Assembly (NCBI RefSeq): GCF_964355755.1
Contig: NC_092680.1
Coordinates: forward strand, 10,106,001-10,170,000
From: Antedon mediterranea
Taxonomy: Eukaryota; Animalia; Echinodermata
DNA length: 64,000 nt
Reading direction: 5' to 3'
Part shown: one piece after another, positions 42,722 through 64,000 of the stretch
Numbering within the stretch: position 1 is the first letter of the stretch
How the letters are laid out: each line of letters starts with the position of its first letter
Notes under the pieces: generated by a model
What the model was told of the DNA's origin: nothing
What the model saw: only the letters and a program-made list of their open reading frames with translations
The model's database searches: none
Translations under genes and position numbers: made by a program

Positions 42722-43930
42722 CTAGATTTGAACTCGTCACTACGGACGAGTTAGGTTATCCGCAGCGCAAAAGCCACGCGCATGACACATAAGTTAGAAT
42801 ATTGCGCGCAGAAAAACGATTATGCCATTGAAAAAAAATGTTAGTGAGCCCTCTATTTTGCGTCACGTCTGAGTATATACGGTATACGCTATATACTGTA
42901 TACGTACTACATACAGTGCAGAATAGGTGAAAATAAGTGACCAAAGTAATTGACGCTTTTGGACATGATGACGTCATCACAATTTTACAAATGGCAAATA
43001 ATGTGAAAGATAATTGATGGACTTAGACAATATAAAGAAATGGGAGAAATTGAAGACGGATAAGTAGAGATGCGCTCTATTAAATTCGACGAGCTATGAC
43101 GAAAGAAAAAAAAATCCTATATTTTATATTCGGGTGGCCATACGATGACGTCACAATATCCGGTTAGCCATATCAATGCATGATTCGAGAAATAAAACTC
43201 ATCTACTTCCAGAATTTGTAATTTAAAAAAAGTTCACTCTGTAGTTTAGAATTTATGACTGTTTAAAAAAAGGTCTAATTTTGACGAATTTTTGAAGTTT
43301 TTCATCAAAAACGCGCGCAAATTGTTCAATTCTACGTGCTCGTATGACGTGATTTTAAGTCGAAATTGATTGAAAATTGGTAAATTTACTAGAAAAGGCT
43401 GTAAAAACAAAAATCAAGCAAAAAAAAGATGTTTTTGCGCTACGTGCGCACGCGCGCGTAAAAAAATGCGCACGCCTGGGAATTTTTGAAATGCTCAAAA
43501 TGCCCTGAAACGCGTAGAAAGTTGATTAGAAATGGATATTTCGCAATTTGAAATTTTAAACGCGCGTGCGCGCGTAACTTTATGTCAAACATGTCATTTT
43601 TAATCCATAGAAAGTTTGCGCATGATATAACTTAAATTTTCACGAAGTTTCAATAGAAAATGACTTTTGGTTTTCAATCTATGATCAATCATTGAAATTC
43701 ATAAAATCGCGCGTAACTTACGCTGCGCGACTCCAAATTCATAAAAAAAAGTTTCTTGCACATCTACAGCTACAGGGCAATCTTATGACAAAGTTACACA
43801 ATCTTATGTTCTCCAAAATTAGAGATACGCTGCGAACAAAATTCCGGGAAAGAAAGAAGAATAAGATAGAAAAAAAAAAAAAAAGATCCTGACAATAACA
43901 AGGGGTTATCCGCCAAGTGCGGATAACCAA
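42722..43930 (-). mobile_element. Non-autonomous Helentron (HINE) unit A, both termini present
   Basis: CTAGATTTG-AACTCGTC/GACGAGTT hairpin-GGTTATCCGC subTIR at left; GGTTATCCGCCAAGTGCGGATAACC palindrome plus AA at right. Confidence 0.88.
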
Positions 43931-45445: not shown

Positions 45446-46598
45446 CTAGATTTGAACTCGTCACTACGGACGAGTTAGGTTATCCGCAGCGCAAAGGCCA
45501 CGTGCACGTCATACGTTAAAATATTGCGCGCAGAAAAACGATTAAGTCATTGAAACAATTTCAGTGTGCTCTCTATTTTTCGTCACGTCTGAGTATATAC
45601 GGTATACACTACATACTGTATACGTACTACATACAGTGCAGAATAGGTGAAAATAAGTGACCAAAGTTATTGACGCTTTTGAACATGATGACGTCATTAC
45701 AATTTTGAAAATGGTGAATCGTGCGAAAGGTAATTGATAGACCTAGACAACATAAAAAAATGGGGGGAAATGGAATACAAATAAGTGGAGATGCGCTATA
45801 TTAAATGTGACGAGCTACGAGGAAAGAGACAAAAATCCTATATTTTATATTCGAGTGGCCATACGATGACGTCAGAATGTCCGGTTAGCCATATTGATGC
45901 ATTATTTGATATCTGCAACTCATCTACTACCAGAATATGTAATTATAAAAAAGTTCACCACGTAGTTTAGAATCTATGACTGTTTAAAAAAAGACATAAT
46001 TTTGACAAATTTTTGAACTTTTTCATCAAAAATGCGCGTAAATTGTTTATTTCTACGTGCTCGTATGACGTGATTTTAAGTCGAAATTGTTTGAAAGCTG
46101 GTAAATTTTCTAAAAAAGACAGGAAAAACAAAAATCAATCAAAAAAATGATGTTTTTGCGCTACGTGCGCACGTGCGCGTAAAAAAATTGCGCACGCGTG
46201 GGAATTTTTGAAATGCTCAAAATGACATGAAACGCGTAGAAAGTTGATTAGATATTAATTTTTCGCATTTTGAAATTTTAAATACGCGTGCGCGCGTAAC
46301 TTTTTATGAAACATGCCATTTTTAATCCATAGAAACTTTGCGCATTATATGACTTAAATGTTCACCAAGTTTCAATACAAAACAACTTTTAGTTTTTATT
46401 CTATGATCAATCATTGAAATTCACAAAATTGCGCGTAACTTACGCTGCGCAACTCGAAATTTGAAAAAAAAAGTTTCTTGCACATCTACAGCTACAGGGC
46501 AATCTTTTGACAAAGTTATACAATCATATGTTGGCCAGAATTAGAGATACGCTGCGCACAAAAAATGGGGGAGAAGGATGTAAGGAAAGAAATAAATA
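45446..46598 (-). mobile_element. HINE unit C (lacks right terminal cap)
   Basis: Same left end and body; ends in purine-rich tract. Confidence 0.85.
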
Positions 46599-47805
46599 CT
46601 AGATTTGAACTCGTCACTTCGGACGAGTTAGGTTATCCGCAGCGCAAAGGCCATGTGCACGCCATACGTTAGAATATTGCGCGCAGAAAAACGATTATGC
46701 CATTGAAAAAATGTTAGTGCGCTCTCTATTTTGTGTCACGTCAAAGTATATACGGTATACGCTATATTCTGTATACGTACTACAAACAGTGCAGAATAGG
46801 TGAAAATAAGGGACCCAAGTTATTGACGCTTTTGCACATGATGACGTCATCACAATTTAAAAAATGGTAGATTATGCGACAGATAATTGATTGGCCTAGA
46901 CAATATAACAAAATGGGGGGAAATGGAATACGGATAAGTGGAGATGCGCTCTATTAAATGTGATGAGCTATGCGAAAGAGACAAAAATCCTATATTTTAT
47001 ATTCGAGTGGCCATACGATGACGTCTCAATTTCCGGTTAGCCATATCGATGCATGATTTGATATCTGCAACTCATCTACTTCCAGAATCTGAAATTTTAA
47101 AAATTTTCACCACGGAGTTTAGAATCTATGACTTTTTAAAAAAAGGTATAATTTTCACGAATTTTTAAACTTTTTCATCAAAAACGCGCGCAAATTGTTC
47201 AATTCTACGTGCTCGTATGACGTGATTTTATGTCGAAATTGATTGAAAATTGGTAAATTTACTAGAAAAGCCTGAAAAAACAAAAAAATGCAAAAAAAAG
47301 ATGTTTTTGCGCTACGTGCGCACGCGCACGTAAAAATAATGCGCACGCGTGGGAATTTTTGAAATGTTCACAATGACATGAAACGCGTAGAAAATTGATT
47401 AGAAGTTGATTTTACGCATTTTGAAATTTTAAACGCGCGTGCGCGCGTAACTTTCTGTGAGACATGCAATTTTTAATCCATAGGAACTTTGCCCTTGGTA
47501 TAACTTATATTTTCACCAAGTTTCAATAAAAAATGACTTTTGGTTTTCAATATATGATCAATCATTGAAATTCATAAAATCGCGCGTAACTTACGCTGCG
47601 CATCTCCGAAATCGTCCAAAAGCTTGGCTGCACATCTACAGCTATAGTTCAATCTTTTGACAAAGTTATACAATATTATGTTGGCCAGAAGATAGAGATA
47701 TGCTGTGGACAAAATTCTGGGAAAGAAAGAAGAATAAGATAGAAGAAAAAAAAAAAAAAGATCCTGACAATAACAAGGGGTTATCCGCCAAGTGCGGATA
47801 ACCAA
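46599..47805 (-). mobile_element. HINE unit D, both termini present
   Basis: Same termini as unit A. Confidence 0.88.
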
Positions 47806-48744
47806 CTAGATTTGAACTCGTCACTACGGACGAGTTAGGTTATCCGCAGCGCAAACGCCACGCGCACGTCATACGTTAGAATATTGCGCGCAGAAAAACG
47901 ATTATGCCATCCATGGAAAAAATGTTAATGCGCTCTCTACTTTTATGGTGAAAGTGTGGTGAATTGTGTCTGGGCCTACAGCATTTATGTTACTTTTGGC
48001 GACGATTGCGTGTCATATTAGTAAAGAACAACGTGGTTACACCTCCATGTTGGATTTGTAATATTATAGCCTAGTATTGCTCCCGATATTGCTTTGCAAT
48101 TTTATATTGTTAAAACGAACATATAGCCTATATTAAAAAAGTTTAAACACAATTGTGTTAAATATAATAGTTAGAAATAGGTAAGATATATTTTGATTAA
48201 TTTGGATTGTTGATTTGTAATATTTAATTGTTTTTGTGTTTGCCATCAAAATGAAATGGCCTAGAGGGCCTAGGCTGCTAGGCTAGGCCTAGCCGTGTCC
48301 CGGATTACCTCTTCAGGAAGGCCTAGACCTAGCCTAGGTTTAGTTGTACAGTACTGTAGTAGAGGCATAATGACGCTAGCCTAGTTCCATTTTGCATCTG
48401 GCTTATAACTATATATTAATTCCTAATTTGTTAACAAACTTTATCTTGAATACCATGCCTTAAAATTAAACACCGGTATAATATAGCCTACTCTACTTAG
48501 CATTGTTAGCAAGCTGAGTCTGCTTTGCGAAGTTCTCTTCTATGCCTACTAGCCTAGGCCTCCTAGGTAGGGGCTAGGCCTAGTTTTTAGTTGTATAAGT
48601 TCCTAAAGAGTTGGAAGAGATACATGTACAGTAATAACATTATTGTTTCTACAGTACTTCATAATCTCTAGAATATCGTAAATAGTGAACATAAAATAAA
48701 TAATTTGTAGAGATGATTTATGGTCTCATGATTGGAAGTGAAGT

Positions 48745-51722
48745 GTTGCCTGTTATTTTGTAGGCATTTATACTATTATGAAACATTTACATAATTCAAA
48801 TTTTATTGTTTGTGATCAAACTATTAAATGAAATTACCATTGAGACAACATGTCGGCCCCAATTAGCTGGCCCATAGCCAAAGTCATTTTAAGGAAATTT
48901 CCTAATTTTTCAGACATTGATTAAGAAGCTTGTTGATTTGGAAAAAGTGTTAATGTTGTTTATTGCCATTATCAATGTTTTTCCTTGTATTTTTTAGATT
49001 GTAATTGTTTTTTTAATTGTTTTTTATTAACAGAAGATTTACAGTTTCAGCTACAGCTGTGAGTATTAGTAGGGCAATTCCACAATTTTTTGGGGGATTT
49101 TGAAAATGTTCAACTTTTAGCAGTCTTAACACGTTTGATATCAAACTAAAGCTAATGTTATATACTTTCAGGATATTTAAGTGGTAAAAAAAATATATAG
49201 ATATATACAGACATATTTCCATTTAAAATAATGATATTTAGAAAACTTAAAAAATAATAAACAATATGAGGTTTACTTAAATCCTATAACAGACAACTAA
49301 ACCCTAATTTATACATGTCATTTCTTTTTAGAATTAAAGAACTAAATATATTGTTTGAGATTTTGTTTAAAAAAATTGAATTAATCAACATAGAAATATT
49401 AAGGAGGGGCCAACATAATTATTAATAAGTTTGTCGGGTTGTTACCAAAAAAATTTTTTAATTTAAGAACCATGTACCTTCTAGACAATTATAATATTTT
49501 CCAAACTATTAAAAATTATAGCTTTACATACACTCATAAGGTTACTTTTTTTTTAAACCTTATTTTTACATTTTTATATGATATTAAAAAGTGTCTGGTT
49601 GTTACCGAGTTGGTCACAAACTGACATGTCAGTCTGTGACCAGTGTTATTACAGTAAGCTAAACCAACATTTTTACAGTAAAATTTATTTCAATATGCTT
49701 TAAAATCAATAATCAAAATATATAGTATATAGTTTTAAAAAATTGAATTAATCAACATAGAAATATTAGATAGGGGCCAACATTTATTAATGATTTTGTC
49801 GGGTTGTTACCGAAAAACAACATTTATTTTTAAATTTAAGAACCATGCACCTTCTTGACAATTATAATATTTTCCAAACTATTAAAAATTATAGTTTTAC
49901 ATATACTCATGAAAAAATGTTAATGTTGTTTATTGCCATTATCAATGTTTTGCCTTGTTTTTTTTAGATTGTAGAAAATATACAGTTTTAGCTACAGCTG
50001 TGAGTATTAGTAGATTATCTGTTAAACAGAGAAAACATATTTTCCTTACTTTGTGAACTGTTGCCTGCCCTAATCAGCCGTTTCATACCCAAAGTCATTT
50101 TGAGGAAATTTCTTAATTTTTCAGACATTGATTAAGAAGCATGTTGATTTGGAAAAAGTGTTAATGTTGTTTATTACCATTATCAATGTTTTTCCTTGTT
50201 TTTTTTAGATTGTAGAAAATATAGAGTTTCAGCTACAGCTGTGAGTATCAGTAGATTATCTGTTAAACGGAGAAAAAATATTTTCCTTACTTTGTGAACT
50301 GTTGCCTGCCCTAATCAGCCGTCTCATACCCAAAGTCATTTTGAGGAAATTTCTTAATTTTTCAGACATTGATTAAGAAGCGTGTTGATTTGGAAAAAGT
50401 GTTAATGTTGTTTATTACCATTATCAATGTTTTTCCTTGTTTTTTTTTAGATTGTAGAAAATATACAGTTTGAGCTACAGCTGTGAGTATTAGTAGATTA
50501 TCTGTTAAACGGAGAAAACATATTTTCCTTACTTTGTGAACTGTTGCCTGTTATTTTGTAGACATTTTGTATTATGAAACATTTACATAATTCAGATTTT
50601 ATTGTTTGTGATCAAACAATTAAATGAAATTACCATTGAGAAAACATGTAGGCCGCAATCAGCCGGCCCATACCCAAAGTCATTTTGAGGAAATTTCTTA
50701 ATTTTTCAGACATTGATTAAGAAGCATGTTGATTTGGAAAAAGTGTTTATGTTGTTTATTGCCATTATTAATGTTTTTACTTGTATTTTTTAGATTGTAG
50801 AAAATATAGGCCTACAGTTTCAGCTACAGCTGTGAGTATTAGTAGATTATCTGTTAAACGGAGAAAACATATTTTCCTTACTTTGTGAACTGTTGCCTGT
50901 TATTTTGTAGGCTTTTTCTATTATGAAACATTTACATAATTCAGGTTTTATTGTTTGTGATTAAAATATTAAATGAAATTAACATTGAGACAACACCCAA
51001 ATACCCAGTCATTTTGAGGAAATTTCTTAATTTTTTAGACATTGATTAAGAAGCATGTTGATTTGGAAAAAGTGTTTATGTTGTTTATTGCCATTATTAA
51101 TGTTTTTACTTGTATTTTTTAGATTGTAGAATATATAGGCCTACAGTGTCAGCTACGGCTGTGAGTATTAGTAGATTATCTGTTAAACGGAGAAAACATA
51201 TTTTCCTTACTTTGTGAACTGTTGCCTGTTATTTTGTAGGCTTTTTCTATTATGAAACATTTACATAATTCAGATTTTATTGTTTGTGATTAAAATATTA
51301 AATGAAATTAACATTGAGACAACACCCAAATACCCAGTCAGTTTGAGGAAATTTCTTAATTTTTTAGACATTGATTAAGAAGCATGTTGATTTGGAAAAA
51401 GTGTTTATGTTGTTTATTACCATCATTAATGTTTTTCCTTGTTTTTTTTTAGATTGAAGAAAATATTCAGTTTCAGCTACAGCTGTGAGTATTAGTAGAT
51501 TATCTGTTAAACGGAGAAAACATATTTTCCTTACTTTGTGAACTGTTGCCTGTTATTTTGTAGGCATTTTCTATTATGAAACATTTACATAATTCAGATT
51601 TTATTGTTTGTGAATATTAAATGAAGTTAGCATTGAGACTACATGTAGGCCCTAATCAGCCGTCTCATACCCAAAGTCATTTTGAGGAAATTTATTAATT
51701 TTTCAGACATTGATTAAGAAGC
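48745..51722 (+). repeat. Tandem array (240-350-bp units, ~7 copies) upstream of RepHel, each with acceptor/short exon/GTGAGT donor signature
   Basis: (T)nAG|ATTGTAGAAAATATACAGTTTCAGCTACAGCT|GTGAGTAT recurring, donors at 49059, 50000, 50241, 50483, 50832, 51161, 51485. Confidence 0.88.
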
Positions 51723-52284
51723 AATTACACCCCTTCATACAGTTAATATCAAGATGTGATAAAACAAATACATTACAAATTGTTAAAAATGCAAAATAAA
51801 GTTTACATCATTTAAAATCGGTAAAATCTACTACAGCTACCATGAAATGTGTTATACAGTATTTTGTGTATTATGAGTGTGCTGCCGATTTATCATTATT
51901 AATTTTACATGATACCTATGACAGGGCCTTATTAAAAAAAATACATTAGTTTTTGTAGTTTATTTTAACCTATAAAAAAAATTGGGTTATGTAAAAGATA
52001 CCAACTAGAATCATATAGTTTGGACTACATTATTTTCAAGTTATGACTCACAACATAGTATGTTTCTTTGATCTATCATCTCTAACTACTAATGAGTTTA
52101 ATTAAGCGATTAAATCGCACAAAGATTGTGAAGTGAATGATTATATCATGCGTATTACAATTATGCTGCTTGAGCATGCTTACTAATACTATGCAAGAAT
52201 TTTCTCTTATAAGTCATGGGGTAGAAAAAATATATAACATTATTAATAATTTTTCTTTCTCTTTTATTGCAGAGTTTTGAAGAA

Positions 52285-52364
52285 TTAATCCGCTGGGTCT
52301 CAGAAGAGACCCGGATCTCCGAAAGAGATCCTGCTCTCCGAAAGAGAGTACCAACGAGGATTAA
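52285..52364 (+). other. Three abutting hairpins within a closing stem (cloverleaf), upstream of the RepHel ATG
   Basis: GGGTCTC-AGAA-GAGACCC, GGATCTC-CGAAA-GAGATCC, TGCTCTC-CGAAA-GAGAGTA; outer TTAATC..GATTAA. Confidence 0.8.
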
Positions 52365-52750
52365 CCGATTATAAGTATTCCATATCAGCAACAACGAAAG
52401 CAAATTTAAAGCAAAATCTCCACTGGATGAATTATTTTAAGCAAAATCTCCACTGGATGAATAAAACGAAATCTCAAATCTTTTTATAGACAGCAGTCTA
52501 TTATCTATCTATCTATCTAAATCTATCTATCTTTCTATTTATTATCTATAGAAACTTTATCAAGGCTTTTGCAGAACCAAAAAAGTTAGGCGTAGTGAAT
52601 ATAAACATTAGTTGTCTCGAAACACAATTTGGAAAGATAAATATAAGTTTAGCAGGAAAAAAAACATATTTGTATAAAGTAATTACGAAGTAGAATACAT
52701 CAATTGTATAGAATTTGAAAACAATTTCTGGATTTGATTAACCATACATA

Positions 52751-55700
52751 ATGGATACACTATTAATAACCTTTATTATTGGTATGTTGTTTTTAATGTT
52801 CTTCTTAATGTTATGGTGCTTTTTTAAGAATAATAAAGAAAATACAAATAAAGGGTACAATAATGTCAATACAGCTGGTAATGTTGATAGTGGTATTATA
52901 GATACAACAGAATTTGAAACAGTCATTGATGAAATCTTGGACCTACTTGACCAATGTTGCTTATCTAAGAATGTCAAAGACAGGAGCACTATAAAACTGG
53001 AAAATGATGATACATGTAATGTCGATTGTGAAGTTATCAAAGATACAACGGAATTTAAAGAAATAATTGATGATATCATAAACATATTATCTTATGGTAC
53101 AGAGGTTGCTTCAGAGTTTGATGATACATGCGATTTGTGTAGTATTGAAGTGAAAGCAGACGACAATTGCATAACATGTGACTGTTGTAGTCAATATTTT
53201 CATGTGAAATGTGTAAGAGATGTTTTTGAAGACAAACTATGTGATTCCAGAGTAATTTGGATTTGTTCAATGTGTGGGTATAGTAATTTTGTTGATAACA
53301 TATTGGGTGAAATAGGTATTCCCTGTCATTTCAATAGATATACGATTCTAGAACCTGATGAATCTGTCACTGCAGACTTAACGAAAAATAAGGAAAAACG
53401 TAATAATGCCAAATTAAAAAAATGTCAACAAACAGGAAGTGAAGATTTACTTGGTAGTGATTGGATAAGGGTAAAATCAAAGAAAAGAACCGACAACAGA
53501 AAAAAAAGATGTAAAAATAGAGGAAATAAGAAAAGGAGAAAGCGCGTTATAAATGGTATAAGTATAGAACCAGGTGTAAAATATATTGGCAAAAGTGTAA
53601 AAGATTTCTATGAAAGACGAAATAATAACAAAATGGAATGGAATATGAATACAAATACTTACAGAGAATACAACAAAGAAAATGCTAAAACGAATGTATT
53701 GGGAAATTCACAAACAATAATTGACGACAGTGGTAGGCCTATGTGTAATGTTTTGAAAAATACCAAAGTAACAAACGGAATACAACAACAATCAGGTGGT
53801 GGTTCGAAACGTTTACGAAATAACAAGGGTCGTTTTGTCAAAACTAAGAAGATTGATAACAAAAAAGCACAAGGTAATGTGAATTTAAAGAATGATTGCG
53901 ATACTATGAAAGATATAAAGAACATGGGTAATAATGACAATTCTGAAACGAAAACTGACGAGGATTTTAAAATGGAATGTAGGCCTACTGTAGAAAACGA
54001 CAACACAGCGACTGACGATGCGAAAGCACAAAATAATAGCAAAATGAATGACAGAAGTAGAATAATTGATAGTAATGGTACAGATCATAAAAATCAAACA
54101 TGTGCAAGTTGTGAATTTGAGGAAAATGAAGTATTGATAATTGATGACGGATGCAAAAAAGCAGTGACTGAAAAAATTAGGTCCCATACTAAACCTAAAT
54201 GTGACCAACATACAATCGATGTGGATATTGAAGTTTTAACAAAAAATAATTTTTCGGAAGAATTGATAATCGATGATGTACCAAAACAAAAAAATACACG
54301 AAAAAGGCAGAAAACACAATCAATAAATGAATTACAAGTATATAATAGTAATGAAAATATAACTGTAGCACAGGGTAATTTTAATCAAGGGAATTATAGA
54401 TTTGGCTTTGCAAGTGGTAAACAGTGTGTTGCAAATAGTCTTGTAGCTATTCTTTATTCTACAAAGAGGAATGGAAATGAATTTTACACCAAAGACCTTG
54501 ATACAATATTGACTCTTGGAAACGAGTTGTACCGTTACATTCAGAAAGATTCCACTATGCACGAGGACCTTTTAATGATTTCTGAACTGCCGAAAGAATT
54601 GGATATCTTGGATAACACATTTGTAATATCTCCCAAAGAATCAGTTTTTGGCATAATAGATGGAAATCTCGAATTTATGGCTGAATATGGAGCCTTGTCA
54701 TTAAACCAAGCTCTTGAACAAGAATTACACCAACATGATGCATTTTTTATGAATTTCAACAGAAGCACATTTTCTATTATCAAACGTGTAAATGGATTTC
54801 ATATATTTGATCCACATGCAAGAGATCGATTTGGTTGTGTTAGTGAACATGGAAAGAGTATTTTACTTTACAGTCCATCTTGGCAAGGTGTGTACGATTA
54901 TTGTATAAGATTAGCAAGGTCAATGAACTGTAATTTACATGAAACCGAGTTTGAACTGACTGGTGTAAATATTGAAAATAAGTCTATGATGTTATGTTCC
55001 GCTTCTGTGCTCGATGATAATTGTGAACAAAGAAACTTGGGAAACGTCGATGTTGATGAACCTAGTACGTCTTATCAGTATAAATGTAGTACAAGATTAC
55101 CAGACAAGAATATTGATTCTAAGGTTAAAGGCCAAAAACATAATAAAGAAGGTCATGTCTCATCAAGTAATGGATGGCAAAGTGATAGTGATATTGAAAT
55201 TGTTAATGTTCAGTATGGAGAAAGACCTGACAAGAATTTTAAATTTATTCCTATCTCAGAAGCACAAAAGAAAAACATGTGTAATGAAGTAGGCATTCAT
55301 TGTGAACATACCGATAGGAATTCTGGTATTAACAGAGCTAGTCAGATTGGACATCCTCTTCAAATTACGAATATTACAGGTGATGGTAATTGTTTTTATC
55401 GTGCAATTTCATACATTATTTCTGGTACTGAAGATAATCATTTTCTTTTAAGAAGAGCAATTACTAATCATTTATTGGAGACTGATGACTTGTTTATTAA
55501 TACATTTAGTCACGAATATAGATCAGTTAAGGAATATGTGTTAAAAAAAAGAGTAATGGATAATGGAACGTGGGCATCCAATACTGAAATAAGTGCAATG
55601 GCAAACTTGCTTAATACAGATATTTATTCATTTAATGATCAACTTTTGACTTGGCAATTGTTTTCTGCTAAAAAGCCAGGAAGAATAGATGATGTTACAA

Positions 55701-58700
55701 CTGACAATGGTATATATATTTTGTACACCATGAATGTGCATTTTAATGTAGTGGAATCTGTTAATGTTAGTCAAAATAATGTTCAGGAAAAAACAGGACA
55801 CGTTGATATGAATGTGACATCGCACAATAAACTTTCAAATACAGAGGCGAATTTTTTTGTAAAGAATTCTACAACAAAGAAACGAAAGCAAACGGGAAAT
55901 GAAACTTGTGAAACATTTGAAGATATAGAACCAAAACACAAAAAGAGTAAAACTGTTGAGGGACCTTGTTCTGGAAATAAAGTAAAAACATTGAGAAGGA
56001 GAAGAAAAATATCTTATGAAAATAGAAAGCAAAAAGAAAAGAATCGTCAGAGAATGAAAAGAAGAAGAGAAGAAAAAGATAATTCAATAGAAAAAAATGA
56101 AAATAGAAACAAATATCAAAGTGATCCTGCATACAGAGAAGAAAAGAAACGTAAAGTAAAAGAGGCACAACAAGTAAGATATGCTGATGATGATTATAAA
56201 TTCAAAAAAAGGAAGGAAAACAGAAAAAGACAACAAAAAATGTATAGATGTGAACCTGAATATAATGTTAAGGTACGAAATAAAGCTAAACATAACTACA
56301 ATATTGATTTGGATTACCGAACAACCAAAAAAGTCAACAATCGGTTAAATTATAAATGTAATGAAAAATTTACGCAAAATTTGAAAGAAAAATTGAAAAA
56401 TAGATACAATAATGATATAATATTTAGACATAAAACTAGACAAAATAATAAACAAAGAAATGCAGAAAAGTATCACAATGATTCAAAATTCAGACAAACA
56501 TTGAAGGAAAAATTAGCAGCGAAGTATCGTAATAATTCAAAATTTAGAAAAAACGTTACGCAAAAATTGGCAGAGAAGTATCGGAGTAATTTGAAATTTC
56601 GTCAAAACTGCAAACAAAAATTGGCACAGAAATATCGAGGTAATTTAAAATTTCGTCAAAGTATTAAGGAAAGGTGTAAGCAAAGATTTGCAGAAAAGTA
56701 TCATGGTGATGAAGGGTTCCGAAAAAATATTATGAAGAAAAACATGAAAAATAGGGAAAAAAAGAAAAAAGAAAACAATAATTTTGAGTTTGTTTTAGAA
56801 AATTTCAGGGAAACAGTTTCTCGTGGTCCTGAATATGTTTGTTGCGTATGCTTTAAAATGTTATTCAAAGATCAAGTTATGAAGTGTACCAAAACTAAGT
56901 ACAAAAATAAGGCTTGTATAAATGAAAAGTATTTGCATATTTGCAACAATGAATGTAATAAACCTTGTCAATTTATCGAATCACCAAGATGTCGTTTATG
57001 GATTTGTTTCACATGCCACAGGAAATTGTTAAATGGGAAAGTCCCTGCCGAAGCCAATTCAAACAATTTACAACTACACGATATTCCTCCTGAGCTTAGG
57101 TGTTTAAATAATTTAGAGCAGCATTTGATTGGATTGAACATTCCTTTTATGAAATTAATGAATTTACCTAAAGGTGGACAGCATGGAATACATGGACCTG
57201 TTGTATGTGTACCTTCAAATACTATTGAAACTGTAAAAATGCTGCCTAGACCACAGGTTGATGATCAATTAATATCTGTAAAATTGAAGCGAAAGTTGTC
57301 TTACAAAGGTTATTACAAATATAAATTTGTTAATACTGCTCATGTTATTCAAGCTCTTAGATATTTACAAGATCATAACAAGTGCTATTTTGATATAGCT
57401 ATTAATGAAGAATGGCACAATTATTTATCTGAAGAAAACATCGAAAATACAAATACTAATGGAGATGAAAATCAAACATGTATAGAAAGTAATGAAGAAG
57501 AAGAGGAAGAATTAGAAGACCGATTATGTGGTGCTACCTTTGATACAAGTCTTCAACCTGTTGACAGGCGACAAAATTTGGTTGATGAATATTTTAATGA
57601 CATCATTTGTTGTGCACCGTGTGAAAATAATAGCCCTATTGCATTATTAAGTAATAAAAGCAATGAAGCAAAATCATTTCCAGTGTTATTTCCAACAGGC
57701 CAACCAACATTCCATGATACGAGAGATGTTAAAATAACACTCGGACGTTATTTTCATAATAGATTAATGCATATAGATAACAGGTTTGCACAAAATACAG
57801 AATTCATATTTTATGCTCAATCGTTATATGAACTTCAACAAATTTTATCAAGTATTTCCATTGCATTGCGAAAAGGGTCAAGTAAAAAGGATGATTTTAG
57901 TAAAGTTACTGTATCGGATTTAAAAAATGTTACCAAAATTGACGAAATTTTAAAATCTGATAGGGGTTATAAATTTTTAAAACAAATTCGTGGAACTCCA
58001 CCGTACTGGCAAGCTACACAGAAAGATGTAATAGCAATGGTTAGACAGATTGGAAAGCCAACATTCTTTCTTTCATTCTCAAGTGCTGACTTCCGTTGGA
58101 AAGAAATAATGACGACATTGTTAAATCAGTCAGGAGACCAAAGAAACATTGAAGAATTGGAATGGGCAGATAAATGTAATTTGTTGAAATCAAATCCAGT
58201 GACTGTTGCCAGAATGTTTGACAAACGCTTTCATACTTTTTTGAAAAATGTAATTTTGTCTGAAGCACAGCCTATTGGTAAAGTCATAGATTATTTTTAC
58301 CGAATTGAATTTCAAATGAGAGGAAGTCCACATGTTCATATGTTAGTATGGGTTGAAAATGCTCCTATTTTTGGTACGGATAAAGATAACGAAGTTATTA
58401 ATTTTGTCGATAAATATATTTCGTGTGCTGTGCCATGTGAAACTGTAGATCCTGAACTGAATGAAATTGTTAAAAGTGTGCAAATTCACAGTAAAAGACA
58501 TTCTAAATCATGTAAAAAAAAGGGAACAAACTGCAGATTTAACTTCCCCAGACAACCTTCTGGAAATACATTTGTTATGAGACCTACAATTGCGGATAAA
58601 GACAGTGATGATAATGATGACAATAAACAAGCAATGGAGCTGTTAACCTCAGTAAAAGATGCTGTGAGTAATGAAGAAACATATAAAAATGCAATAGAAC

Positions 58701-61700
58701 TTTTCCAAAGTTTAGGTATTACACAGAGTGCATTTGAGAAAGCAAATAATTGTGTAGCTACTGAGGAAAAGATTGTTATAAAGAGAAACCCTCAAGATGT
58801 GTGGGTAAATCAATATAATCCTTCCTTATTGAGAGCATGGAATGCTAATATGGATATTCAGTATATTACAAATGTATATGCATGTATTATTTACGTTATA
58901 GGATATATGTCTAAATCTGAACGGGAAATGGGCTTACTTTTATCTCATGCAGCATCAGAAGTGAAAGAAGGCAATGAAGATGCTAGGCAAAGTTTGCGAA
59001 AACTTGGTAATGTTTATATGAATAACCGAGAAGTGTCTGCACAAGAAAGTATTTATCGTGTTTGTAGTTTAAGATTAAAAGAATGTTCAAGGAAAGTTGA
59101 ATTTATCCCAGTAGGACCTAATCCTGTCAGAATGAGTTTACCATTAAGTGTAATTAAAAACAAAAAAGATGATGATGTAAGTGCATGGTTGCCAAATAAG
59201 ATCGACAAATATAAAGCTCGACCTAATAGTTCTGAATTTAATAAAATGTGCCTTGCAAAATTTTGTTCGGAATATAGAATATTGAGTTCATCAGAAATGA
59301 AAGAAAACAAACAAAAAAAGAATGTATATCAGTTAAAAAAACAGTTGGGATTCATCCAAAAAAGAACACGAACTAGTAATGCTATAGTAAGATACCCTCG
59401 ATTTCCAATGGATACAGCACCTGAGAAATATTTTTTGAGTATACTTCAGTTATTTCTACCATTTCGAAAAGATGAACAGTTAAAACCTCCAAATTTTGAA
59501 ACGTACGAACAATTTCATGAGAAAGGATGTGTGAATTTATGTGGCTGTCAATTACAAACGGTAAAGTCAATAGTTAATGGAAACATGAAACAATATGAAA
59601 AAAGTGCTGAAGATGTTGAAGAAGCACAGGAATTTTTATTAAAATTTGGACCACAAGAAGATGCATGGAGCCTATTATGTCCAGAAAGCGAAAAAGAAAG
59701 GTTAGACAACCCAAAGCCAAATGTAGAGGTTGATGATGAAGAAGATGAATTTTTCATTCCAGATTTTGGAATTCAAAAAAATCATACATCTAAGGTAGAG
59801 TCTAATTCATCTAATATTCCAAGACCAGAATTGAACAAAATGATTCGATCTTTAAATGAAAAACAACAACATATATTTTATAAGACAAGACAATGGTGTT
59901 TAGACAAAGTTAATGGTAAAAAACCTGAAGCATTTTACAATTTCATAACTGGAGGCGCTGGTACAGGAAAAAGTCATTTGGTAAATTGTATTTATAATGA
60001 AGCGACACGTATTCTTGGAAAGATTATGGAAAATCCCGATGATTTGTCAATATTGAAATTAGCTCCTACAGGAATCGCAGCATATAATATTAAAGGCCAA
60101 ACAATTCATAGCGCTTTGTCTATCCCGATTAATATTTCACTTCCGTATCAACCACTTGGAGAAGAAAAAATAAGTGCACTTCGTAATAAATTGGGCCAGT
60201 TGCAAATTGTTATTATAGATGAAATATCAATGGTAAATCAAAGGTTACTTTGGTATATCCACGGACGATTAAGGCAAATAAAACAAGTACGCAACGATAG
60301 TCCATTTGGTAACATTTCAGTAATTGCTGTTGGTGATTTTTATCAGTTACCCCCGGTGATGGGCAGTTCGTTATATAAAGACACATTGGAAAGCTCACTG
60401 TGGATAGATAACTTTAAGCAAGTACAGTTAGATCAAATCATGAGGCAAAAAGAAGATAAACAATTTGCTTTATTGTTAAACAAATTGCGTACAAAAGAAA
60501 AACATGATTGTTTGTCTGATAACGATTTATTAGTTCTAAAATCACGTGAAACAGGTGAAGAATGTGAAGATGCTGTTCATATTTACCCACGCAACAAACA
60601 AGTTGATGAATGGAATAAAAAAATGTTGCACAAAACCTGTACAGACATTGTATGCATTAAAGCAGAAGATAGTGTAGTAAATAGCAAGAAACAGAGCAAA
60701 AATTGTGACAAACCTCGGAATTCACGTCAAACTAGTTTACTAAGTTATTTGTGGATTGCAATTAATGCCAGAGTGATGTTGATTAAAAATGTAGATGTTA
60801 AAAAAGGCTTAACGAATGGATGTATGGGACATGTTGATGAAATAGTCAAACCTGATCATAACACCGAACCAGTATCTATTAAAGTAAAATTTGACAATAA
60901 TGACATTGGTATTCAGGCAATTGAAATGTTTAAAGAATCTATGGGGAAAAAATACAGTCGAAAACAATTTCCTCTCAAATTAGCATATGCATGCACAGTT
61001 CATAAAGTGCAAGGAATGACAATGGATAAAGCAGTGGTTTGCCTTAAAGATACTTTTATGCATGGTCAAGCATATGTAGGCCTCAGTCGTGTTACTTCAA
61101 TAACTGGACTTACTATTGAAAATTTTAAACCTAGTCTGATTTATTGTGATCCAAACATAAAGAAGTGCTTAAATAATATGGATTCATACGTACAATGTGA
61201 TAAACAAGGTCATGATTCGGCTTCTAGATTTTCAATAATGTTACATAACATTCAAGGGCTTAAACAACATTTTGTTGATCTTCAGTGTAATGATTTGTTT
61301 ATGAATTCTAATATCATATGTCTAACTGAAACATGGTTAAACAAGGATGATGATGTTTTTGACGTACGCATTGAGCCGTATAAATTGTATCACCAAGCAA
61401 GGTATGATTCGTATTCTAATACAAATGATCTCAGTTCCAAAATAAAACATCAGGCTCATGGTGGCGTTGCAGTGTATGCCAAGAACACGTCTTCAAGCAG
61501 ATTAAACATATGTAATAATGATATAGAAGCAGTTTCATTTTTAATAACAAGTCCGATTTCTGTTGCCGTGTCAGTAATTTATCGACCCCCAAGTTATGAT
61601 ATTAATCAATTCTGTCAAAATTTGAGAAAACATTTGGAAGAGTTACATAAAATGAGCACAAAATGTATTGTAATGGGTGATTTTAATGAAAATCTTTTCA

Positions 61701-61882
61701 AACAATCTTCCAGAGTGAATAATTTAATGGCAGAGAATGAGTACAAACAACATGTTACATGTTCCACCACTGAAAACAATACATTGATTGATCATGTTTA
61801 TAGCAAAGGTCTTGATTCAGTACAGGCTGAAGTAATTCCAATTTATTATAGCTATCATGAAGCCATTCAAATTAAATTCTAA
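52751..61882 (+). CDS. Helentron RepHel polyprotein: hydrophobic N-anchor, PHD, VTD/C76 DUB, OTU, basic repeats, Zn-Cys, HUH Rep, Pif1-like SF1 helicase, APE endonuclease
   Basis: 3043 aa, no stops. PHD 53129-53275; QGNFNQG..GKQC..FDPH (54371-54817); GDGNC..W..HF (55379-55747); EFQMRGSPHVH and YVIGY Rep motifs; GGAGTGKS, DEISM, GDFYQLPPV, TVHKVQG, QAYVGLSR; HNIQGL, LTETW, YRPP, GDFN, IDH, SYH. Confidence 0.96.
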   Translation: MDTLLITFIIGMLFLMFFLMLWCFFKNNKENTNKGYNNVNTAGNVDSGIIDTTEFETVIDEILDLLDQCCLSKNVKDRSTIKLENDDTCNVDCEVIKDTTEFKEIIDDIINILSYGTEVASEFDDTCDLCSIEVKADDNCITCDCCSQYFHVKCVRDVFEDKLCDSRVIWICSMCGYSNFVDNILGEIGIPCHFNRYTILEPDESVTADLTKNKEKRNNAKLKKCQQTGSEDLLGSDWIRVKSKKRTDNRKKRCKNRGNKKRRKRVINGISIEPGVKYIGKSVKDFYERRNNNKMEWNMNTNTYREYNKENAKTNVLGNSQTIIDDSGRPMCNVLKNTKVTNGIQQQSGGGSKRLRNNKGRFVKTKKIDNKKAQGNVNLKNDCDTMKDIKNMGNNDNSETKTDEDFKMECRPTVENDNTATDDAKAQNNSKMNDRSRIIDSNGTDHKNQTCASCEFEENEVLIIDDGCKKAVTEKIRSHTKPKCDQHTIDVDIEVLTKNNFSEELIIDDVPKQKNTRKRQKTQSINELQVYNSNENITVAQGNFNQGNYRFGFASGKQCVANSLVAILYSTKRNGNEFYTKDLDTILTLGNELYRYIQKDSTMHEDLLMISELPKELDILDNTFVISPKESVFGIIDGNLEFMAEYGALSLNQALEQELHQHDAFFMNFNRSTFSIIKRVNGFHIFDPHARDRFGCVSEHGKSILLYSPSWQGVYDYCIRLARSMNCNLHETEFELTGVNIENKSMMLCSASVLDDNCEQRNLGNVDVDEPSTSYQYKCSTRLPDKNIDSKVKGQKHNKEGHVSSSNGWQSDSDIEIVNVQYGERPDKNFKFIPISEAQKKNMCNEVGIHCEHTDRNSGINRASQIGHPLQITNITGDGNCFYRAISYIISGTEDNHFLLRRAITNHLLETDDLFINTFSHEYRSVKEYVLKKRVMDNGTWASNTEISAMANLLNTDIYSFNDQLLTWQLFSAKKPGRIDDVTTDNGIYILYTMNVHFNVVESVNVSQNNVQEKTGHVDMNVTSHNKLSNTEANFFVKNSTTKKRKQTGNETCETFEDIEPKHKKSKTVEGPCSGNKVKTLRRRRKISYENRKQKEKNRQRMKRRREEKDNSIEKNENRNKYQSDPAYREEKKRKVKEAQQVRYADDDYKFKKRKENRKRQQKMYRCEPEYNVKVRNKAKHNYNIDLDYRTTKKVNNRLNYKCNEKFTQNLKEKLKNRYNNDIIFRHKTRQNNKQRNAEKYHNDSKFRQTLKEKLAAKYRNNSKFRKNVTQKLAEKYRSNLKFRQNCKQKLAQKYRGNLKFRQSIKERCKQRFAEKYHGDEGFRKNIMKKNMKNREKKKKENNNFEFVLENFRETVSRGPEYVCCVCFKMLFKDQVMKCTKTKYKNKACINEKYLHICNNECNKPCQFIESPRCRLWICFTCHRKLLNGKVPAEANSNNLQLHDIPPELRCLNNLEQHLIGLNIPFMKLMNLPKGGQHGIHGPVVCVPSNTIETVKMLPRPQVDDQLISVKLKRKLSYKGYYKYKFVNTAHVIQALRYLQDHNKCYFDIAINEEWHNYLSEENIENTNTNGDENQTCIESNEEEEEELEDRLCGATFDTSLQPVDRRQNLVDEYFNDIICCAPCENNSPIALLSNKSNEAKSFPVLFPTGQPTFHDTRDVKITLGRYFHNRLMHIDNRFAQNTEFIFYAQSLYELQQILSSISIALRKGSSKKDDFSKVTVSDLKNVTKIDEILKSDRGYKFLKQIRGTPPYWQATQKDVIAMVRQIGKPTFFLSFSSADFRWKEIMTTLLNQSGDQRNIEELEWADKCNLLKSNPVTVARMFDKRFHTFLKNVILSEAQPIGKVIDYFYRIEFQMRGSPHVHMLVWVENAPIFGTDKDNEVINFVDKYISCAVPCETVDPELNEIVKSVQIHSKRHSKSCKKKGTNCRFNFPRQPSGNTFVMRPTIADKDSDDNDDNKQAMELLTSVKDAVSNEETYKNAIELFQSLGITQSAFEKANNCVATEEKIVIKRNPQDVWVNQYNPSLLRAWNANMDIQYITNVYACIIYVIGYMSKSEREMGLLLSHAASEVKEGNEDARQSLRKLGNVYMNNREVSAQESIYRVCSLRLKECSRKVEFIPVGPNPVRMSLPLSVIKNKKDDDVSAWLPNKIDKYKARPNSSEFNKMCLAKFCSEYRILSSSEMKENKQKKNVYQLKKQLGFIQKRTRTSNAIVRYPRFPMDTAPEKYFLSILQLFLPFRKDEQLKPPNFETYEQFHEKGCVNLCGCQLQTVKSIVNGNMKQYEKSAEDVEEAQEFLLKFGPQEDAWSLLCPESEKERLDNPKPNVEVDDEEDEFFIPDFGIQKNHTSKVESNSSNIPRPELNKMIRSLNEKQQHIFYKTRQWCLDKVNGKKPEAFYNFITGGAGTGKSHLVNCIYNEATRILGKIMENPDDLSILKLAPTGIAAYNIKGQTIHSALSIPINISLPYQPLGEEKISALRNKLGQLQIVIIDEISMVNQRLLWYIHGRLRQIKQVRNDSPFGNISVIAVGDFYQLPPVMGSSLYKDTLESSLWIDNFKQVQLDQIMRQKEDKQFALLLNKLRTKEKHDCLSDNDLLVLKSRETGEECEDAVHIYPRNKQVDEWNKKMLHKTCTDIVCIKAEDSVVNSKKQSKNCDKPRNSRQTSLLSYLWIAINARVMLIKNVDVKKGLTNGCMGHVDEIVKPDHNTEPVSIKVKFDNNDIGIQAIEMFKESMGKKYSRKQFPLKLAYACTVHKVQGMTMDKAVVCLKDTFMHGQAYVGLSRVTSITGLTIENFKPSLIYCDPNIKKCLNNMDSYVQCDKQGHDSASRFSIMLHNIQGLKQHFVDLQCNDLFMNSNIICLTETWLNKDDDVFDVRIEPYKLYHQARYDSYSNTNDLSSKIKHQAHGGVAVYAKNTSSSRLNICNNDIEAVSFLITSPISVAVSVIYRPPSYDINQFCQNLRKHLEELHKMSTKCIVMGDFNENLFKQSSRVNNLMAENEYKQHVTCSTTENNTLIDHVYSKGLDSVQAEVIPIYYSYHEAIQIKF

Positions 61883-61997
61883 TTGCAGCAATGGTTTTTA
61901 AGTATTTGAATTATATTTCTCTAACAACTTTTTAAGAATTGAAAATAGAACTGGATACAAATAAAAAAATACAATTTGATAAAAACAAGATGAAAAT

Positions 61998-62700
61998 CAA
62001 CCCATGTCATTCTCCTGTATAGGAAAAACAAAATCTGGTGTCTAAACACATTTCAATCTTGTTTTTATGTGAGTTATATTATTATAGATTTTGTTCTGAA
62101 TTTGAATATGCAATGTTGCAATCTGTGCACATAATAATCGTTCAATATCTACCAGTATTCAAGTAATGTTAAAAATAAAAAGTAAAATTTCACAGAAGAA
62201 GAAAATACGTTTTGTTTTATACGATTACCAATACTTCATTAGGTCTAAACATAATTTCAGTTGTATAATTGTTTTTTTTATATTATTTTTTTTTTATCTA
62301 TCCAGGTCCACATAAAATTACTAATACAGTAATTTACTCATTTGGAAGAAAAATCAAGTTATTATCTATGCAAGAGGGGCAGCGAATAATCTGTAACTTC
62401 AACCCATGTCATTCTCCTGTATAGGAGAAACAATATCTGGTGAGTAAACACATTTTAATCTTGTTTTTATGTGAGTTATATTATTATAAATATTGTTCTA
62501 AATTTGAATATGCAATGTTGCAATCTGTGCACATAATAATCGTTCAATATCTACCAGTATTCAAGTAATGTTAAAAATAAAAAGTTACATTTTACAGAAG
62601 AAGAAAATACGTTTTATTTTATACGATTACAAATACTTCATCTATCCAGGTCCACTTGAAATTACTAATACAGCAATTTATTTCTTTAAAAGAATAATCA
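61998..62700. repeat. ~400-bp-period tandem duplication downstream of the RepHel stop
   Basis: CAACCCATGTCATTCTCCTGTATAGGA at 61998 and 62400 followed by ~290 bp of high identity. Confidence 0.88.
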
Positions 62701-63920
62701 ATTTATTTTGTTTGGTTTTTAGGTATTTAATGGAATGGTTTCATAACTTCAATTATAATGGGATCCGGATTTTTAGGCAGTCAGTAATGCAGTCATTCGC
62801 TCTTTCATAGTAATTGCCTAAACGCGGCAAATGATTCAATTATGAATTATAATAATGATTGTTAAAAAATAAGAATCTTCTCTAAATAAATCAATAAATA
62901 TGCGTTTAATGAATCCACAACTAACAAATTAACATGTATATAGTGTAGGAAGTAAAATTACTGATCACCAAATAAACTACTGTATAGTATAAACAGCCTA
63001 CTATAATTTTGAAAATTGTGTGCAATTTCCAATAACCAATGAAAGCTTTTATAAACACACACATAAATACATACATTTCATACTTATTATTTGTTTGAAA
63101 TAAAAAAATATTTTTAACAGTTATGGTGTGATTATATTAGTTTTATCAGAACTATTATATCTATTGGAGCAATTGAAACTCCATTAGATCAAAACACAGA
63201 GCAGAGGAAACAAGAAATTGTTATTATTATTCATACATTCTGTAACTGGTTGTACTGTCGATATTATGGTGTATAGCAGAACTGTGTTTGATGTTATCAA
63301 AAAGAAACATAAAGGCATGTCCAATTTCGAAAAGTAATTCATCTCAACGAGAACATAATAAATTTAATTTAAAAAGAAAATTTGCCACTACGACTGAGAT
63401 ACGCAATATGTTGAAGTGATAAATTATGACAAAAATACATGAAAATTCTACCTTTCCAATTACCTTTTCAATTACTGGCCATAGCATCATCTGATAGCAT
63501 GACCCATAGAATGACCTCACAGCATCCAATAGGAAAATTTGTCTGAGCAACAACATGTTCACATTTTGAGGAAATTCAGGCACGTGAAAGTGAGAGGCGC
63601 GGTCTTTTAAAACCGATGAACTTTTACTGAATTGTGTCTATTTTGTTTCATACGTCTAGTATATACTTATATACAGTGAAGCACAGAAACAATTACGAGA
63701 CCCATATTTTATTAAAAATTTTTAAATGATGACGTCATAAAAATTAATCATGAAGATAACAATTTAAAAGCATAGATATCTAAATAATTACATTCTAAAA
63801 AGGTAAAGAATTTTGGCCACGTAAAATTAAGACGCTCGTTTTTTCAAACACGACACGGCAGAATTAGAGATACGCTGCGAATAAAACTGGTGGAAAGAAA
63901 GAAGAATATAGAAAAAAAAA

Positions 63921-64000
63921 TATTTGAACTCCTCACTATCAACGAGTTAGGTTATCTGCCGCCGCGTAAACGCTACGTGCACATCATACGTTAGAATATT
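63921..64000 (-). mobile_element. Start of a further, more diverged HINE/Helentron unit (F), running off the window
   Basis: ATTTGAACTCCTCACTATCAACGAGTTAGGTTATCTGCC.. degenerate copy of the shared left end. Confidence 0.8.

Follow-up and report, generated by a model that had tools for sequence, protein, structure and literature searches.

A Helentron of the crinoid Antedon mediterranea, found in a stretch of 64,000 nucleotides that was analysed as a whole (the window), encodes a polyprotein with a hydrophobic N-terminal segment, the conservation of which implies that it is kept by selection. A likely role for this segment is that of a membrane anchor facing the cytosol. The preferred reading, to which we give slightly less than an even chance, is that this signal anchor is combined with cleavage after a downstream di-glycine site, which would release a nuclear protein composed of the deubiquitinases, the Rep-helicase and the APE endonuclease.

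The crinoid copy looks intact. The hydrophobic segment, PHD, VTD, OTU, Rep, helicase and APE follow one another in a single frame with intact catalytic motifs (Table 1), and Pfam places DUF6570, Helitron_like_N, PIF1 and Exo_endo_phos in the same frame as the deubiquitinases; the domain reading of the original prediction (a PHD finger, a herpes-tegument-like deubiquitinase and an OTU in frame with Rep-helicase-APE) is thus borne out. The start codon at 52751, with A at −3 and G at +4, lies downstream of an in-frame stop at 52739. Assignment to the Helentrons (HLE2) is based on the fusion of Rep, with its HUH and tyrosine motifs, to a PIF1-like helicase, on an APE endonuclease at the C-terminal end of this ORF, and on DUF6570, a marker of HLE2 (PMC11417382). 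In a FastTree tree, the protein clusters with Helentron proteins of fish, molluscs and echinoderms. No convincing pair of subterminal inverted repeats is found between 47900–48760 and 62640–63660, and two weak hairpins lie at 62814 and 63165.

Table 1. Features of the Helentron and its polyprotein (window coordinates)
Feature	Position	Strand	Details
Element, maximal extent	47944..63626	+	Bounded by units of a ~1.15-kb tandem satellite; upper limit, not true ends
5′ leader intron (GT..AG)	50832..52272	+	Donor within tandem repeat, repeat unit used uncertain
Upstream ORF, 20 aa	52427..52489	+	Second ATG 52457; in main-ORF frame, closed by its own stop
Helentron (HLE2) polyprotein, single ORF	52751..61882	+	3,043 aa
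Hydrophobic segment, aa 4–25	52760..52825	+	Predicted uncleaved signal anchor; Cys near its end, Met20 inside
Acidic amphipathic helix, two copies (aa 52–70, 99–121)	52904..53113	+	
PHD finger, C4HC3, aa 127–175	53129..53341	+	Conserved tail to Tyr197
Basic region, aa 238–290	53462..53620	+	NLS-like clusters; conserved W.RV.S and GV.YIGK motifs
Di-glycine site QQQSGGG, aa 345–351, then basic peptide SKRLRNNKGRFVK	53783..53842	+	Candidate cleavage site and NLS
VTD (herpes tegument-like) deubiquitinase, aa 541–741	54371..54973	+	C559, D687, H689
OTU deubiquitinase, aa 830–1001	55238..55753	+	C881, H997
DUF6570 (HLE2 marker)	57032..57415	+	Pfam
Rep (HUH) nuclease	57752..58915	+	HUH motif 58307, tyrosine motif 58892
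PIF1-like helicase	59852..60835	+	Walker A 59951, Walker B 60212
APE endonuclease	61247..61864	+	ETW, GDFN, DH and terminal S.H motifs

The Herpes_teg_N profile covers residues 545–692 (E 4e-8) with the catalytic Cys and D-x-H of a VTD (Q558-C559 and D687-P-H689). The OTU profile covers residues 877–959 (E 4.5e-9) with the D..C and His motifs (GDGNC881 and H997), and the domain is similar to a solved OTU, OTUD5 (3tmo, E 3e-6). That OTU, VTD and APE occur in such elements was claimed as established, and the literature agrees: a VTD and an OTU in one Helentron are already published, with 121 cases (PMC9741609). Helitron VTDs are active on ubiquitin; cleavage of ubiquitin or NEDD8 by a VTD of this kind is known from zebrafish relatives only, which favour K48, K63 and K11 chains, with linear chains not named among the favourites (PMC9741609). 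The same article notes that viral deubiquitinases cleave polyproteins at di-glycine motifs.

The hydrophobic run, originally described as about 23 residues followed by KNNK, is confirmed: 22 residues stand in the quoted string, 23 uncharged ones if Thr3 is included, and KNNK occupies positions 26–29. Over 19 residues, its Kyte-Doolittle mean peaks at 2.71, and the next-highest value in the protein is 1.89. Among the ATG-started stretches of at least 30 residues in all six frames of the window, one of 244 reaches a cut of 2.9, a value below which the ORF 52751–61882 itself lies. Such runs are therefore rare in the window yet possible by chance, and the case for an anchor rests on conservation. 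A Met1 followed by 20–25 uncharged residues is present in P0001, P0003, P0004, P0006, P0007 and P0008 (KD19 2.64–3.36), even though residues 2–25 have a mean identity of 33%, less than any other of the ten regions compared. In simulations of neutral change that required the frame to stay open, which are not independent and ignore phylogeny, 1.2–2.7% of runs retain the hydrophobic segment in the four comparisons with the greatest divergence (16% for P0008) and 10–16% retain the ATG (50% for P0008). Of the 22 codons of the segment, 18 have T at position 2 and 7 have it at position 3 (Fisher p=0.002); each copy has 6–11 purine-first I, V or M residues in the run. This frame-specific bias, together with the purine-first codons, marks the run as coding bias and not as a pyrimidine tract.

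In part, the segment has the features of a type III signal anchor. Run length and the lack of a positive n-region are common to all six anchored copies, and each of the six has a Cys among the final four positions of the run. The charge on the C-side is slight: the eight residues after the run have a net charge of +1, +1, +1, +1, −1 and 0, positive in four of the six. A peptidase site with small residues is missing, and the structure model has a helix at residues 2–31 (pLDDT 81–87 for residues 1–20). An N-out topology is predicted from the missing positive charge before the segment, the Lys after it, the missing peptidase site and the Cys at its edge.

The anchor is found in five of the eight Antedon gene models of its clade and in 6 of 53 leaders of at least 100 residues, all from this one clade. 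Because every other leader examined is without the segment, it is best explained as a clade-specific gain, and a general Helentron feature is rejected. The expectation that relatives would conserve the helix accordingly stands for close relatives and fails beyond this single Antedon clade. Even there, three models are without the segment: P0002 splices around it with a TTTTTTAAG acceptor, P0005 begins with the Met that ends it, and the start of P0139 lies beyond the PHD. A search of the ESM Atlas with residues 1–370 gives no usable match. Shorter relatives of this region are likewise missing among 3,609 candidates, a blank that is uninformative because HMMER did find such proteins. Separately, the S. 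purpuratus fragments P0125, P0127, P0128 and P0131 reach a KD19 of 2.48 in an APE-like stretch and were left out of the leader count.

The exon that carries the start codon begins at 52273. The joint 50831→52273 is seen in run X5 only (none in X2, X6 or X11), and loose contig ends fall at 52273/52276 in X5 and X10. Intron bins 52117–52272 have zero depth in X5 and X10 and are covered in X4 and X7. X5 and X10 are probably RNA, and their contigs stem from the family and not provably from this locus; they cover 52433–52946 and 52682–53119, respectively, with no joint within 52000–53150. The hydrophobic segment is thus probably transcribed, and family contigs of two probably-RNA runs carry it unspliced. 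Transcripts that splice out the segment, which would have told against the original prediction, are not seen in four runs; the contigs of the two spliced runs cross it without a joint. A Met at residue 19–21 is kept in all six anchored copies and could yield an anchor-less soluble form. Both copies of the helix in the window protein have Ile in place of the ancestral start Met that preceded it, which leaves Met1, 12, 16 and 20 as the only starts upstream of the PHD.

Anchor-less relatives have one copy of the acidic helix and start just before it. The PHD that follows has the C4HC3 spacing (C127, C130, C143, C146, H151, C154, C172, C175) with a conserved Trp, W170, ahead of the last Cys pair, and these residues are invariant in 24 aligned relatives except C127 (at least 90%). 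The Pfam profile search makes no PHD call in the window protein; the relatives P0164 and P0167 match PF00628. In a fold search with a leader model of mean pLDDT 50.9 and pTM 0.28, the top 10 rows are all PHD fingers, the best with E 0.078 and none at E ≤ 0.001.

The glycine motif lies exactly where it was first noted, at 53783–53803. The pattern [RQ][LVQ]x[GA]G[GA] is present in 32 of 34 crinoid and sea-urchin PHD-leader proteins bearing GV.YIGK, including Strongylocentrotus, Lytechinus and Diadema models, a count in which the pattern was fitted after viewing the sequences and the many near-copies amount to roughly 7–8 lineages. The two proteins without it end 69 and 349 residues past GV.YIGK. 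Conservation among Antedon copies is 83% for residues 343–364, with flanks at 47–48% and the VTD and OTU at 84–86%. The residues [RQ][LV]x before the glycines match the ubiquitin tail pattern, RLRGG. Most relatives carry Leu or Val where the window subfamily has Gln, and one glycine position is Ala in Lytechinus, which makes the register of the predicted cut ambiguous. Outside the echinoderm clade, LxGG occurs in 3 of 39 leaders versus a shuffled mean of 4.6 and is not enriched; as a general Helentron feature it is rejected. Most of these leaders carry the same deubiquitinases, which in general therefore need no such site. From its distribution, the di-glycine site is older than the anchor and so did not arise for anchor release. 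The proposed cleavage site is upheld as a motif conserved well beyond chance, with the Gln of the window copy and the age of the site as corrections. The original interpretation as a whole is partly supported.

According to the preferred reading, translation from ATG 52751 would insert residues 4–25 into the ER or the outer nuclear membrane, so that the N-terminus would lie outside and the C-terminus in the cytosol. A protease specific for GG would then cut after the glycines; the element's own VTD or OTU is the most likely candidate, and a host deubiquitinase or SENP the alternative. A ~40-kDa leader with the anchor, helices, PHD and basic region would stay on the membrane, and a ~2,690-residue VTD-OTU-Rep-helicase-APE protein that begins with an NLS-like peptide would be freed. 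In sea-urchin relatives the cut, which would predate the anchor, would separate a soluble PHD leader from the rest; the anchor, a later addition, would let the transposase into the nucleus only after processing. A bolder extension, which we regard as doubtful, is a self-processing, membrane-gated DNA transposon in which the element's own deubiquitinase cuts at a ubiquitin-tail mimic and the leader serves as a chromatin tether at the inner nuclear membrane, steering the transposase to peripheral heterochromatin. The size limit for reaching the inner nuclear membrane is near 60–70 kDa, and the leader (anchor, linker, PHD and NLS-like basic stretch) is small, so it could reach this membrane.

It is also conceivable, if rather unlikely, that the anchor is real and the protein stays uncut, with the glycines a hinge in a conserved GG-basic peptide (R..KGRF) for DNA binding or import. 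The full-length form would then work tethered: it would reach chromatin in open mitosis, deubiquitinate membrane-near substrates or merely be parked. The residues after the glycines are indeed as conserved as those before them, R..KGRF is shared by Antedon, Diadema and further relatives, the P4-like residue is now Gln in an apparently intact subfamily, and non-clade relatives have the same deubiquitinases without the site. However, the ubiquitin-tail-like residues before the glycines are also conserved, the basic side is more variable across sea urchins than the GG core, and a cytosolic domain of 340 kDa is too big for the inner nuclear membrane. Unlikely, too, are two isoforms, with leaky scanning or re-initiation after the upstream ORF at Met19–21, or a segment-skipping splice, producing the working soluble transposase and leaving the anchored form minor or attenuating. 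The conserved Met, the upstream ORF and the segment-less models P0002 and P0005 fit this explanation, but Met1 has the better context, the P0002 splice has no contig joint in four runs, and its acceptor AG sits in the codon of Lys26, a residue that P0007 and P0008 have replaced. That the hydrophobic run is under selection also implies a role for the long form.

Two further explanations deny the segment an anchoring role. As a cleavable signal peptide or degron, it might direct part of the protein to the ER lumen or to quality control and thereby lower the transposase dose, by analogy with the order hydrophobic leader, 2A, PHD, APE in non-LTR retrotransposons; one study has reportedly described dual targeting by 2A-like signal sequences. 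This is improbable. The NPGP 2A motif occurs in 38 of 68 distant PHD matches, and among the 21 with a long leader, 5 start with a KD19 of at least 2.0, but the window protein has no 2A motif and its residues 1–120 are unlike 2A-PHD leaders. An h-region of 20–25 residues without a positive n-region or small residues at a peptidase site also speaks against it, as does the need of all downstream domains for the cytosol or nucleus. Slightly less probable still is a functionless by-product of T-rich DNA, either a pyrimidine tract or a 5′ leader. T-rich DNA is said, in one study, to yield transmembrane peptides readily, and the DNA of the segment ends in the acceptor-like site that one gene model uses; the frame-specific T bias, the purine-first hydrophobic codons, the kept ATG, the low neutral retention and the presence of the segment in exon-covering contigs from two organisms all speak against this origin.

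Neither the hydrophobic segment nor the di-glycine site was found in print, and the PHD and the VTD+OTU layout are already known. The literature searched, a body that excludes most subscription papers and Repbase reports, yielded no account of a Helitron protein that is anchored in a membrane or cleaves itself, nor of a DNA transposase with a selected membrane anchor; passages in it that mention 'transmembrane' deal with other matters. Erven et al. leave open the purpose of Helitron deubiquitinases and suggest protection from proteasomal degradation (PMC9741609). The ubiquitin-tail-like site common to crinoid and sea-urchin elements adds a second candidate role that is cheap to test, maturation of the transposase. 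The anchor, if used, would give mobile elements a novel means of timing nuclease access to DNA, and would be a candidate example of a transposon acquiring a membrane helix from sequence upstream. Should the self-processing, membrane-gated reading be true, Helitron deubiquitinases would have a role in polyprotein maturation, and the protein would be the first membrane-anchored eukaryotic transposase in the literature searched.

Among the closest published systems are DrT2, a zebrafish Helentron, and the 121 VTD+OTU Helitrons reported by Erven et al. (2022, PMC9741609); like the window protein, they have one VTD (Cys..D-x-H) and one OTU before Rep-helicase-APE in one ORF. The available text of that article lists hosts without echinoderms and mentions for the Helitrons neither a membrane segment nor a PHD leader nor a site of self-processing; the legend of its Fig. 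1b names transmembrane regions, with the proteins unspecified. HLE2 subgroup b (Helentron) of the HELIANO survey (PMC11417382) shares DUF6570, Herpes_teg_N, OTU and EN with the window element. PHD is a row in Supplementary Table S11 of that survey, and the accessible main text and supplement give no match to 'transmembrane' and no Antedon entry. Sea-urchin Helentrons (S. purpuratus LOC584759 X1 = P0134; Lytechinus P0156 and P0200; Diadema P0154) share the acidic helix, the PHD subtype, the GV.YIGK basic region and the di-glycine site, but their models place the start Met just before a single helix and have neither the hydrophobic segment nor the helix duplication.

A related PHD (E about 1e-6 to 1e-3) is found in APE-type non-LTR ORF2 proteins with the order 2A-PHD-APE, often behind a hydrophobic leader separated from the enzymes (PMC3708506). 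There the separation is by ribosome skipping, whereas the candidate split of the window protein lies after the PHD, and the leaders cannot be aligned. The window protein has no NPGP motif and no RT domain and is not such an ORF2; direct capture of its leader from a 2A retrotransposon is rejected, given no similarity over residues 1–120 and no 2A motif. The proposed model, a tethered precursor with a nuclear product, works like viral polyproteins cut at LxGG by papain-like proteases/deubiquitinases and like MYRF, a membrane-bound self-cleaving factor, with no homology claimed. The viral deubiquitinases double as processing proteases, as is proposed for the window element, a role that is demonstrated there and predicted here.

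The window protein is a Helentron (HLE2) polyprotein encoded in a single long ORF, for which the coordinates of the original prediction are correct (see table). In addition to a herpes tegument-like deubiquitinase (VTD) and an OTU deubiquitinase, Pfam detects DUF6570, Helitron_like_N, PIF1 and Exo_endo_phos. The protein retains intact HUH, tyrosine, Walker A/B and APE motifs and equally intact catalytic motifs in the deubiquitinases, or DUBs (Q558-C559, D687-P-H689, GDGNC881, H997). The leader, i.e. the part ahead of the first DUB, opens with a hydrophobic run (aa 4–25, the anchor), which has the top 19-residue hydropathy of the whole protein (2.71 vs 1.89 for the next). In an AlphaFold model of aa 1–370 built from 24 sequences (mean pLDDT 50.9), residues 2–31 are helical (pLDDT 81–87 over the first 20 residues), and helices 52–70 and 99–121 and a folded finger (~121–180) are followed by disorder. 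The finger has C4HC3 spacing, with seven of eight ligands invariant among 24 aligned proteins and C127 present in at least 90%. PHD fingers rank first in a fold search of the leader model, with a best E of 0.078, which is not significant. Between the OTU and the Rep region, aa 1011–1350 are strongly basic (net +61) and hold an 18-residue repeat. Satellite units of ~1.15 kb flank the element, stopping near 47944–47990 and restarting near 63627; its termini were not found. By all protein criteria tested it is a Helentron, with termini not located.

Features of the window and of the window protein
Feature	Position	Strand	Remark
Single long ORF	52751-61882	+	3,043 aa
Herpes_teg_N	aa 545-692		Pfam
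OTU	aa 877-959		Pfam
Tandem repeat, 54 bp	56462-56652		encodes the 18-residue basic repeat
5' leader tandem repeats, 241/329 bp	49911-51723		
Direct duplication, 243 bp (95%)	61997-62239, 62399-62641		3' of stop codon
Tandem satellite, ~1.15 kb	42700-47943, 63627-64000		units 84-88% alike
GC-rich hairpins	47779, 47815		in satellite left of element
Fragments resembling an ORF for LTR-type reverse transcriptase/RNase H and a number of disrupted LINE-type ORFs	13189-14673 (-), 9295-10392 (-), 16506-18948 (-), 33642-34526 (+)		read by eye

The T-rich DNA ending in TTTTTTAAG could be a splice acceptor that does not code for an anchor, and the NCBI model P0002 (99.9% identical to the window protein over 982 residues) splices around the hydrophobic segment. 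Three results argue against this reading. Five other Antedon gene models (P0003, P0004, P0006, P0007 and P0008) start with Met and 20–25 uncharged residues (best 19-residue Kyte-Doolittle mean 2.64–3.36); identity over aa 2–25 averages 33%, below every other region compared, yet hydrophobicity is kept, which bears out the expectation that close relatives retain the segment. In neutral simulations, started from the window codons and conditioned on an open frame, such a segment survives 1.2–2.7% of the time when divergence is set to that of four of the copies, and 16% of the time when it is set to that of P0008, the closest copy; the comparisons are not independent. That the segment is a neutral by-product is highly improbable. 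Of the 22 codons, 18 have T at the second position and 7 at the third (p=0.002), and purine-first codons are used for many residues of the run. Finally, coverage of the anchor is transcription-like: contigs of sequencing runs X5 (52433–52946) and X10 (52682–53119) cross the segment, with no joint listed in 52000–53150, although these contigs represent the family, not provably the window copy, rare variants are dropped from them, and they are taken as RNA on the evidence of splicing. A GT..AG joint from 50831 to 52273 occurs in X5 and is absent from three other runs, and the intron bins 52117–52272 have zero depth in X5 and X10 (two organisms). Removal of the segment by splicing, which would count against the original prediction, is seen in the gene model P0002 but not in the X5 and X10 contigs.

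The donor of the 50831–52273 joint is present in every unit of the 5' leader repeats, which may hold repeated small non-coding exons. Separately, a jump from 53059/53073 to 54467 is found in contigs of X2 and X6 (X4 has a loose end there), which deletes the PHD, the GG site described below and the VTD catalytic Cys while the anchor stays; this is a deleted derivative present in two organisms.

Querying with aa 1–1010 recovered 12 proteins out of 4,667 candidates (8 of 12 labelled Antedon mediterranea, which makes this feather star the most likely host). The Rep-helicase-APE core gave 778 matches, with echinoderms, molluscs, hemichordates and fishes among the 120 listed. The window protein, P0003, P0005, P0006, P0007 and P0139 form one clade (FastTree; support 100, stem 0.21) within anchor-less echinoderm and other relatives, and in a VTD+OTU tree a single branch (support 99; midpoint root) separates the six anchored proteins from the rest. 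Among 53 leaders with at least 100 aa ahead of the first DUB, six have a hydrophobic segment, all from the Antedon clade. A HMMER query with aa 1–370 gave 81 matches. In the nearest out-of-clade relatives (including Strongylocentrotus, Lytechinus and Diadema), a single acidic helix follows the start after 5–17 residues, and after no more than 8 in 9 of 13, which suggests where the ancestral start codon lay. The anchor is young: in the Antedon clade the helix was duplicated and an anchor gained upstream of it. The Met preceding each helix copy is Ile in the window copy. Residues 1–52 of the latter match P0003 and P0004 poorly (P0003: 5/24 and 14/27), the sequence from the PHD onward is 91–100% identical to both, and the anchor is nearest to that of P0008 (14/24). 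The window copy is a mosaic, and anchors have thus been swapped between subfamilies yet retained. In P0162, a sea-urchin helix-PHD start is joined to HYR-like repeats (read by eye), which suggests that an exon was captured or that the gene model is a fusion.

The di-glycine (GG) site singled out by the original prediction, QQQSGGG at aa 345–351, is conserved: among Antedon subfamilies aa 343–364 are 83% conserved, compared with 47–48% for the flanks and 84–86% for the catalytic domains. The pattern [RQ][LVQ]x[GA]G[GA], fitted post hoc, is found in 32 of 34 proteins bearing the leader motif GV.YIGK, many of them near-copies, and the two misses end early. Examples are QLSGGG, QLYGGG, RLYGGG, RVHAGG and RVCGGA, which resemble the ubiquitin tail, RLRGG. 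The site is old. LxGG shows no enrichment outside the clade (3 of 39 leaders vs 4.6 shuffled). The cut register is ambiguous, and Gln replaces Leu in the window's subfamily, where the site (53783–53800) becomes QQQSGG. The SUMO2/3 tail is QQQTGG, and by this likeness the site might there be cut by a SUMO protease of the host. A basic stretch, often R..KGRF, follows the site and would become an N-terminal NLS-like peptide if cut. Four Diadema setosum models (P0232, P0233, P0235 and P0236; 397–398 aa) consist of the helix-PHD-basic leader only and terminate ~30 residues past the GG site, and could represent products of the leader alone or errors of gene modelling. In the distant relatives P0164 and P0165, a divergent VTD-like stretch directly follows the leader, with the GG motif of P0164 located beyond this stretch, near residue 600.

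The protein would insert as an N-out, C-cytosolic anchor. A cut after the glycines, hinted at by their conservation, might then be made by one of its own DUBs (VTD or OTU) or by an enzyme of the host, whereupon a ~2,690-residue enzyme would be imported into the nucleus and a ~40-kDa leader would stay on the membrane. This model as a whole is our tentative preference, at a little under an even chance. A tethered protein that stays uncut is unlikely, if worth keeping in mind. Two findings speak against the anchor: the segment is missing from three of eight clade gene models, and a Met at residue 19–21, retained in all six anchored copies, could yield a soluble form; a working soluble isoform, made from this Met or by splicing, is rather improbable. 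That the segment is a signal peptide or degron is very improbable.

Erven et al. (PMC9741609) report both VTD and OTU in 121 Helitrons and demonstrate that zebrafish VTDs are active DUBs, leave the biological role of Helitron DUBs open, and mark, in Fig. 1b, transmembrane regions in proteins without names. In HELIANO (PMC11417382), HLE2 domains include Herpes_teg_N, OTU, DUF6570 and EN, and PHD has a row in Table S11. Because these sources list them, the two-DUB layout and the PHD are not new. No description of a membrane segment or of self-processing in a Helitron protein turned up in the literature searched. The DUB pair is already known; neither the selected, clade-specific anchor nor the echinoderm-wide GG site was found in print. 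Anchor and GG site together open the way to a specific, inexpensive experiment.

Non-LTR retrotransposons have a 2A-PHD-APE layout (PMC3708506). An NPGP 2A motif occurs in 38 of 68 more distant matches to aa 1–370, and PHD with APE in 4 of 14 matches scanned against Pfam. Several of these elements also open with a hydrophobic leader, but aa 1–120 of the window protein cannot be aligned to theirs and it has no 2A motif. The likeness of the leaders is a parallel, while a common origin of the PHD is possible.
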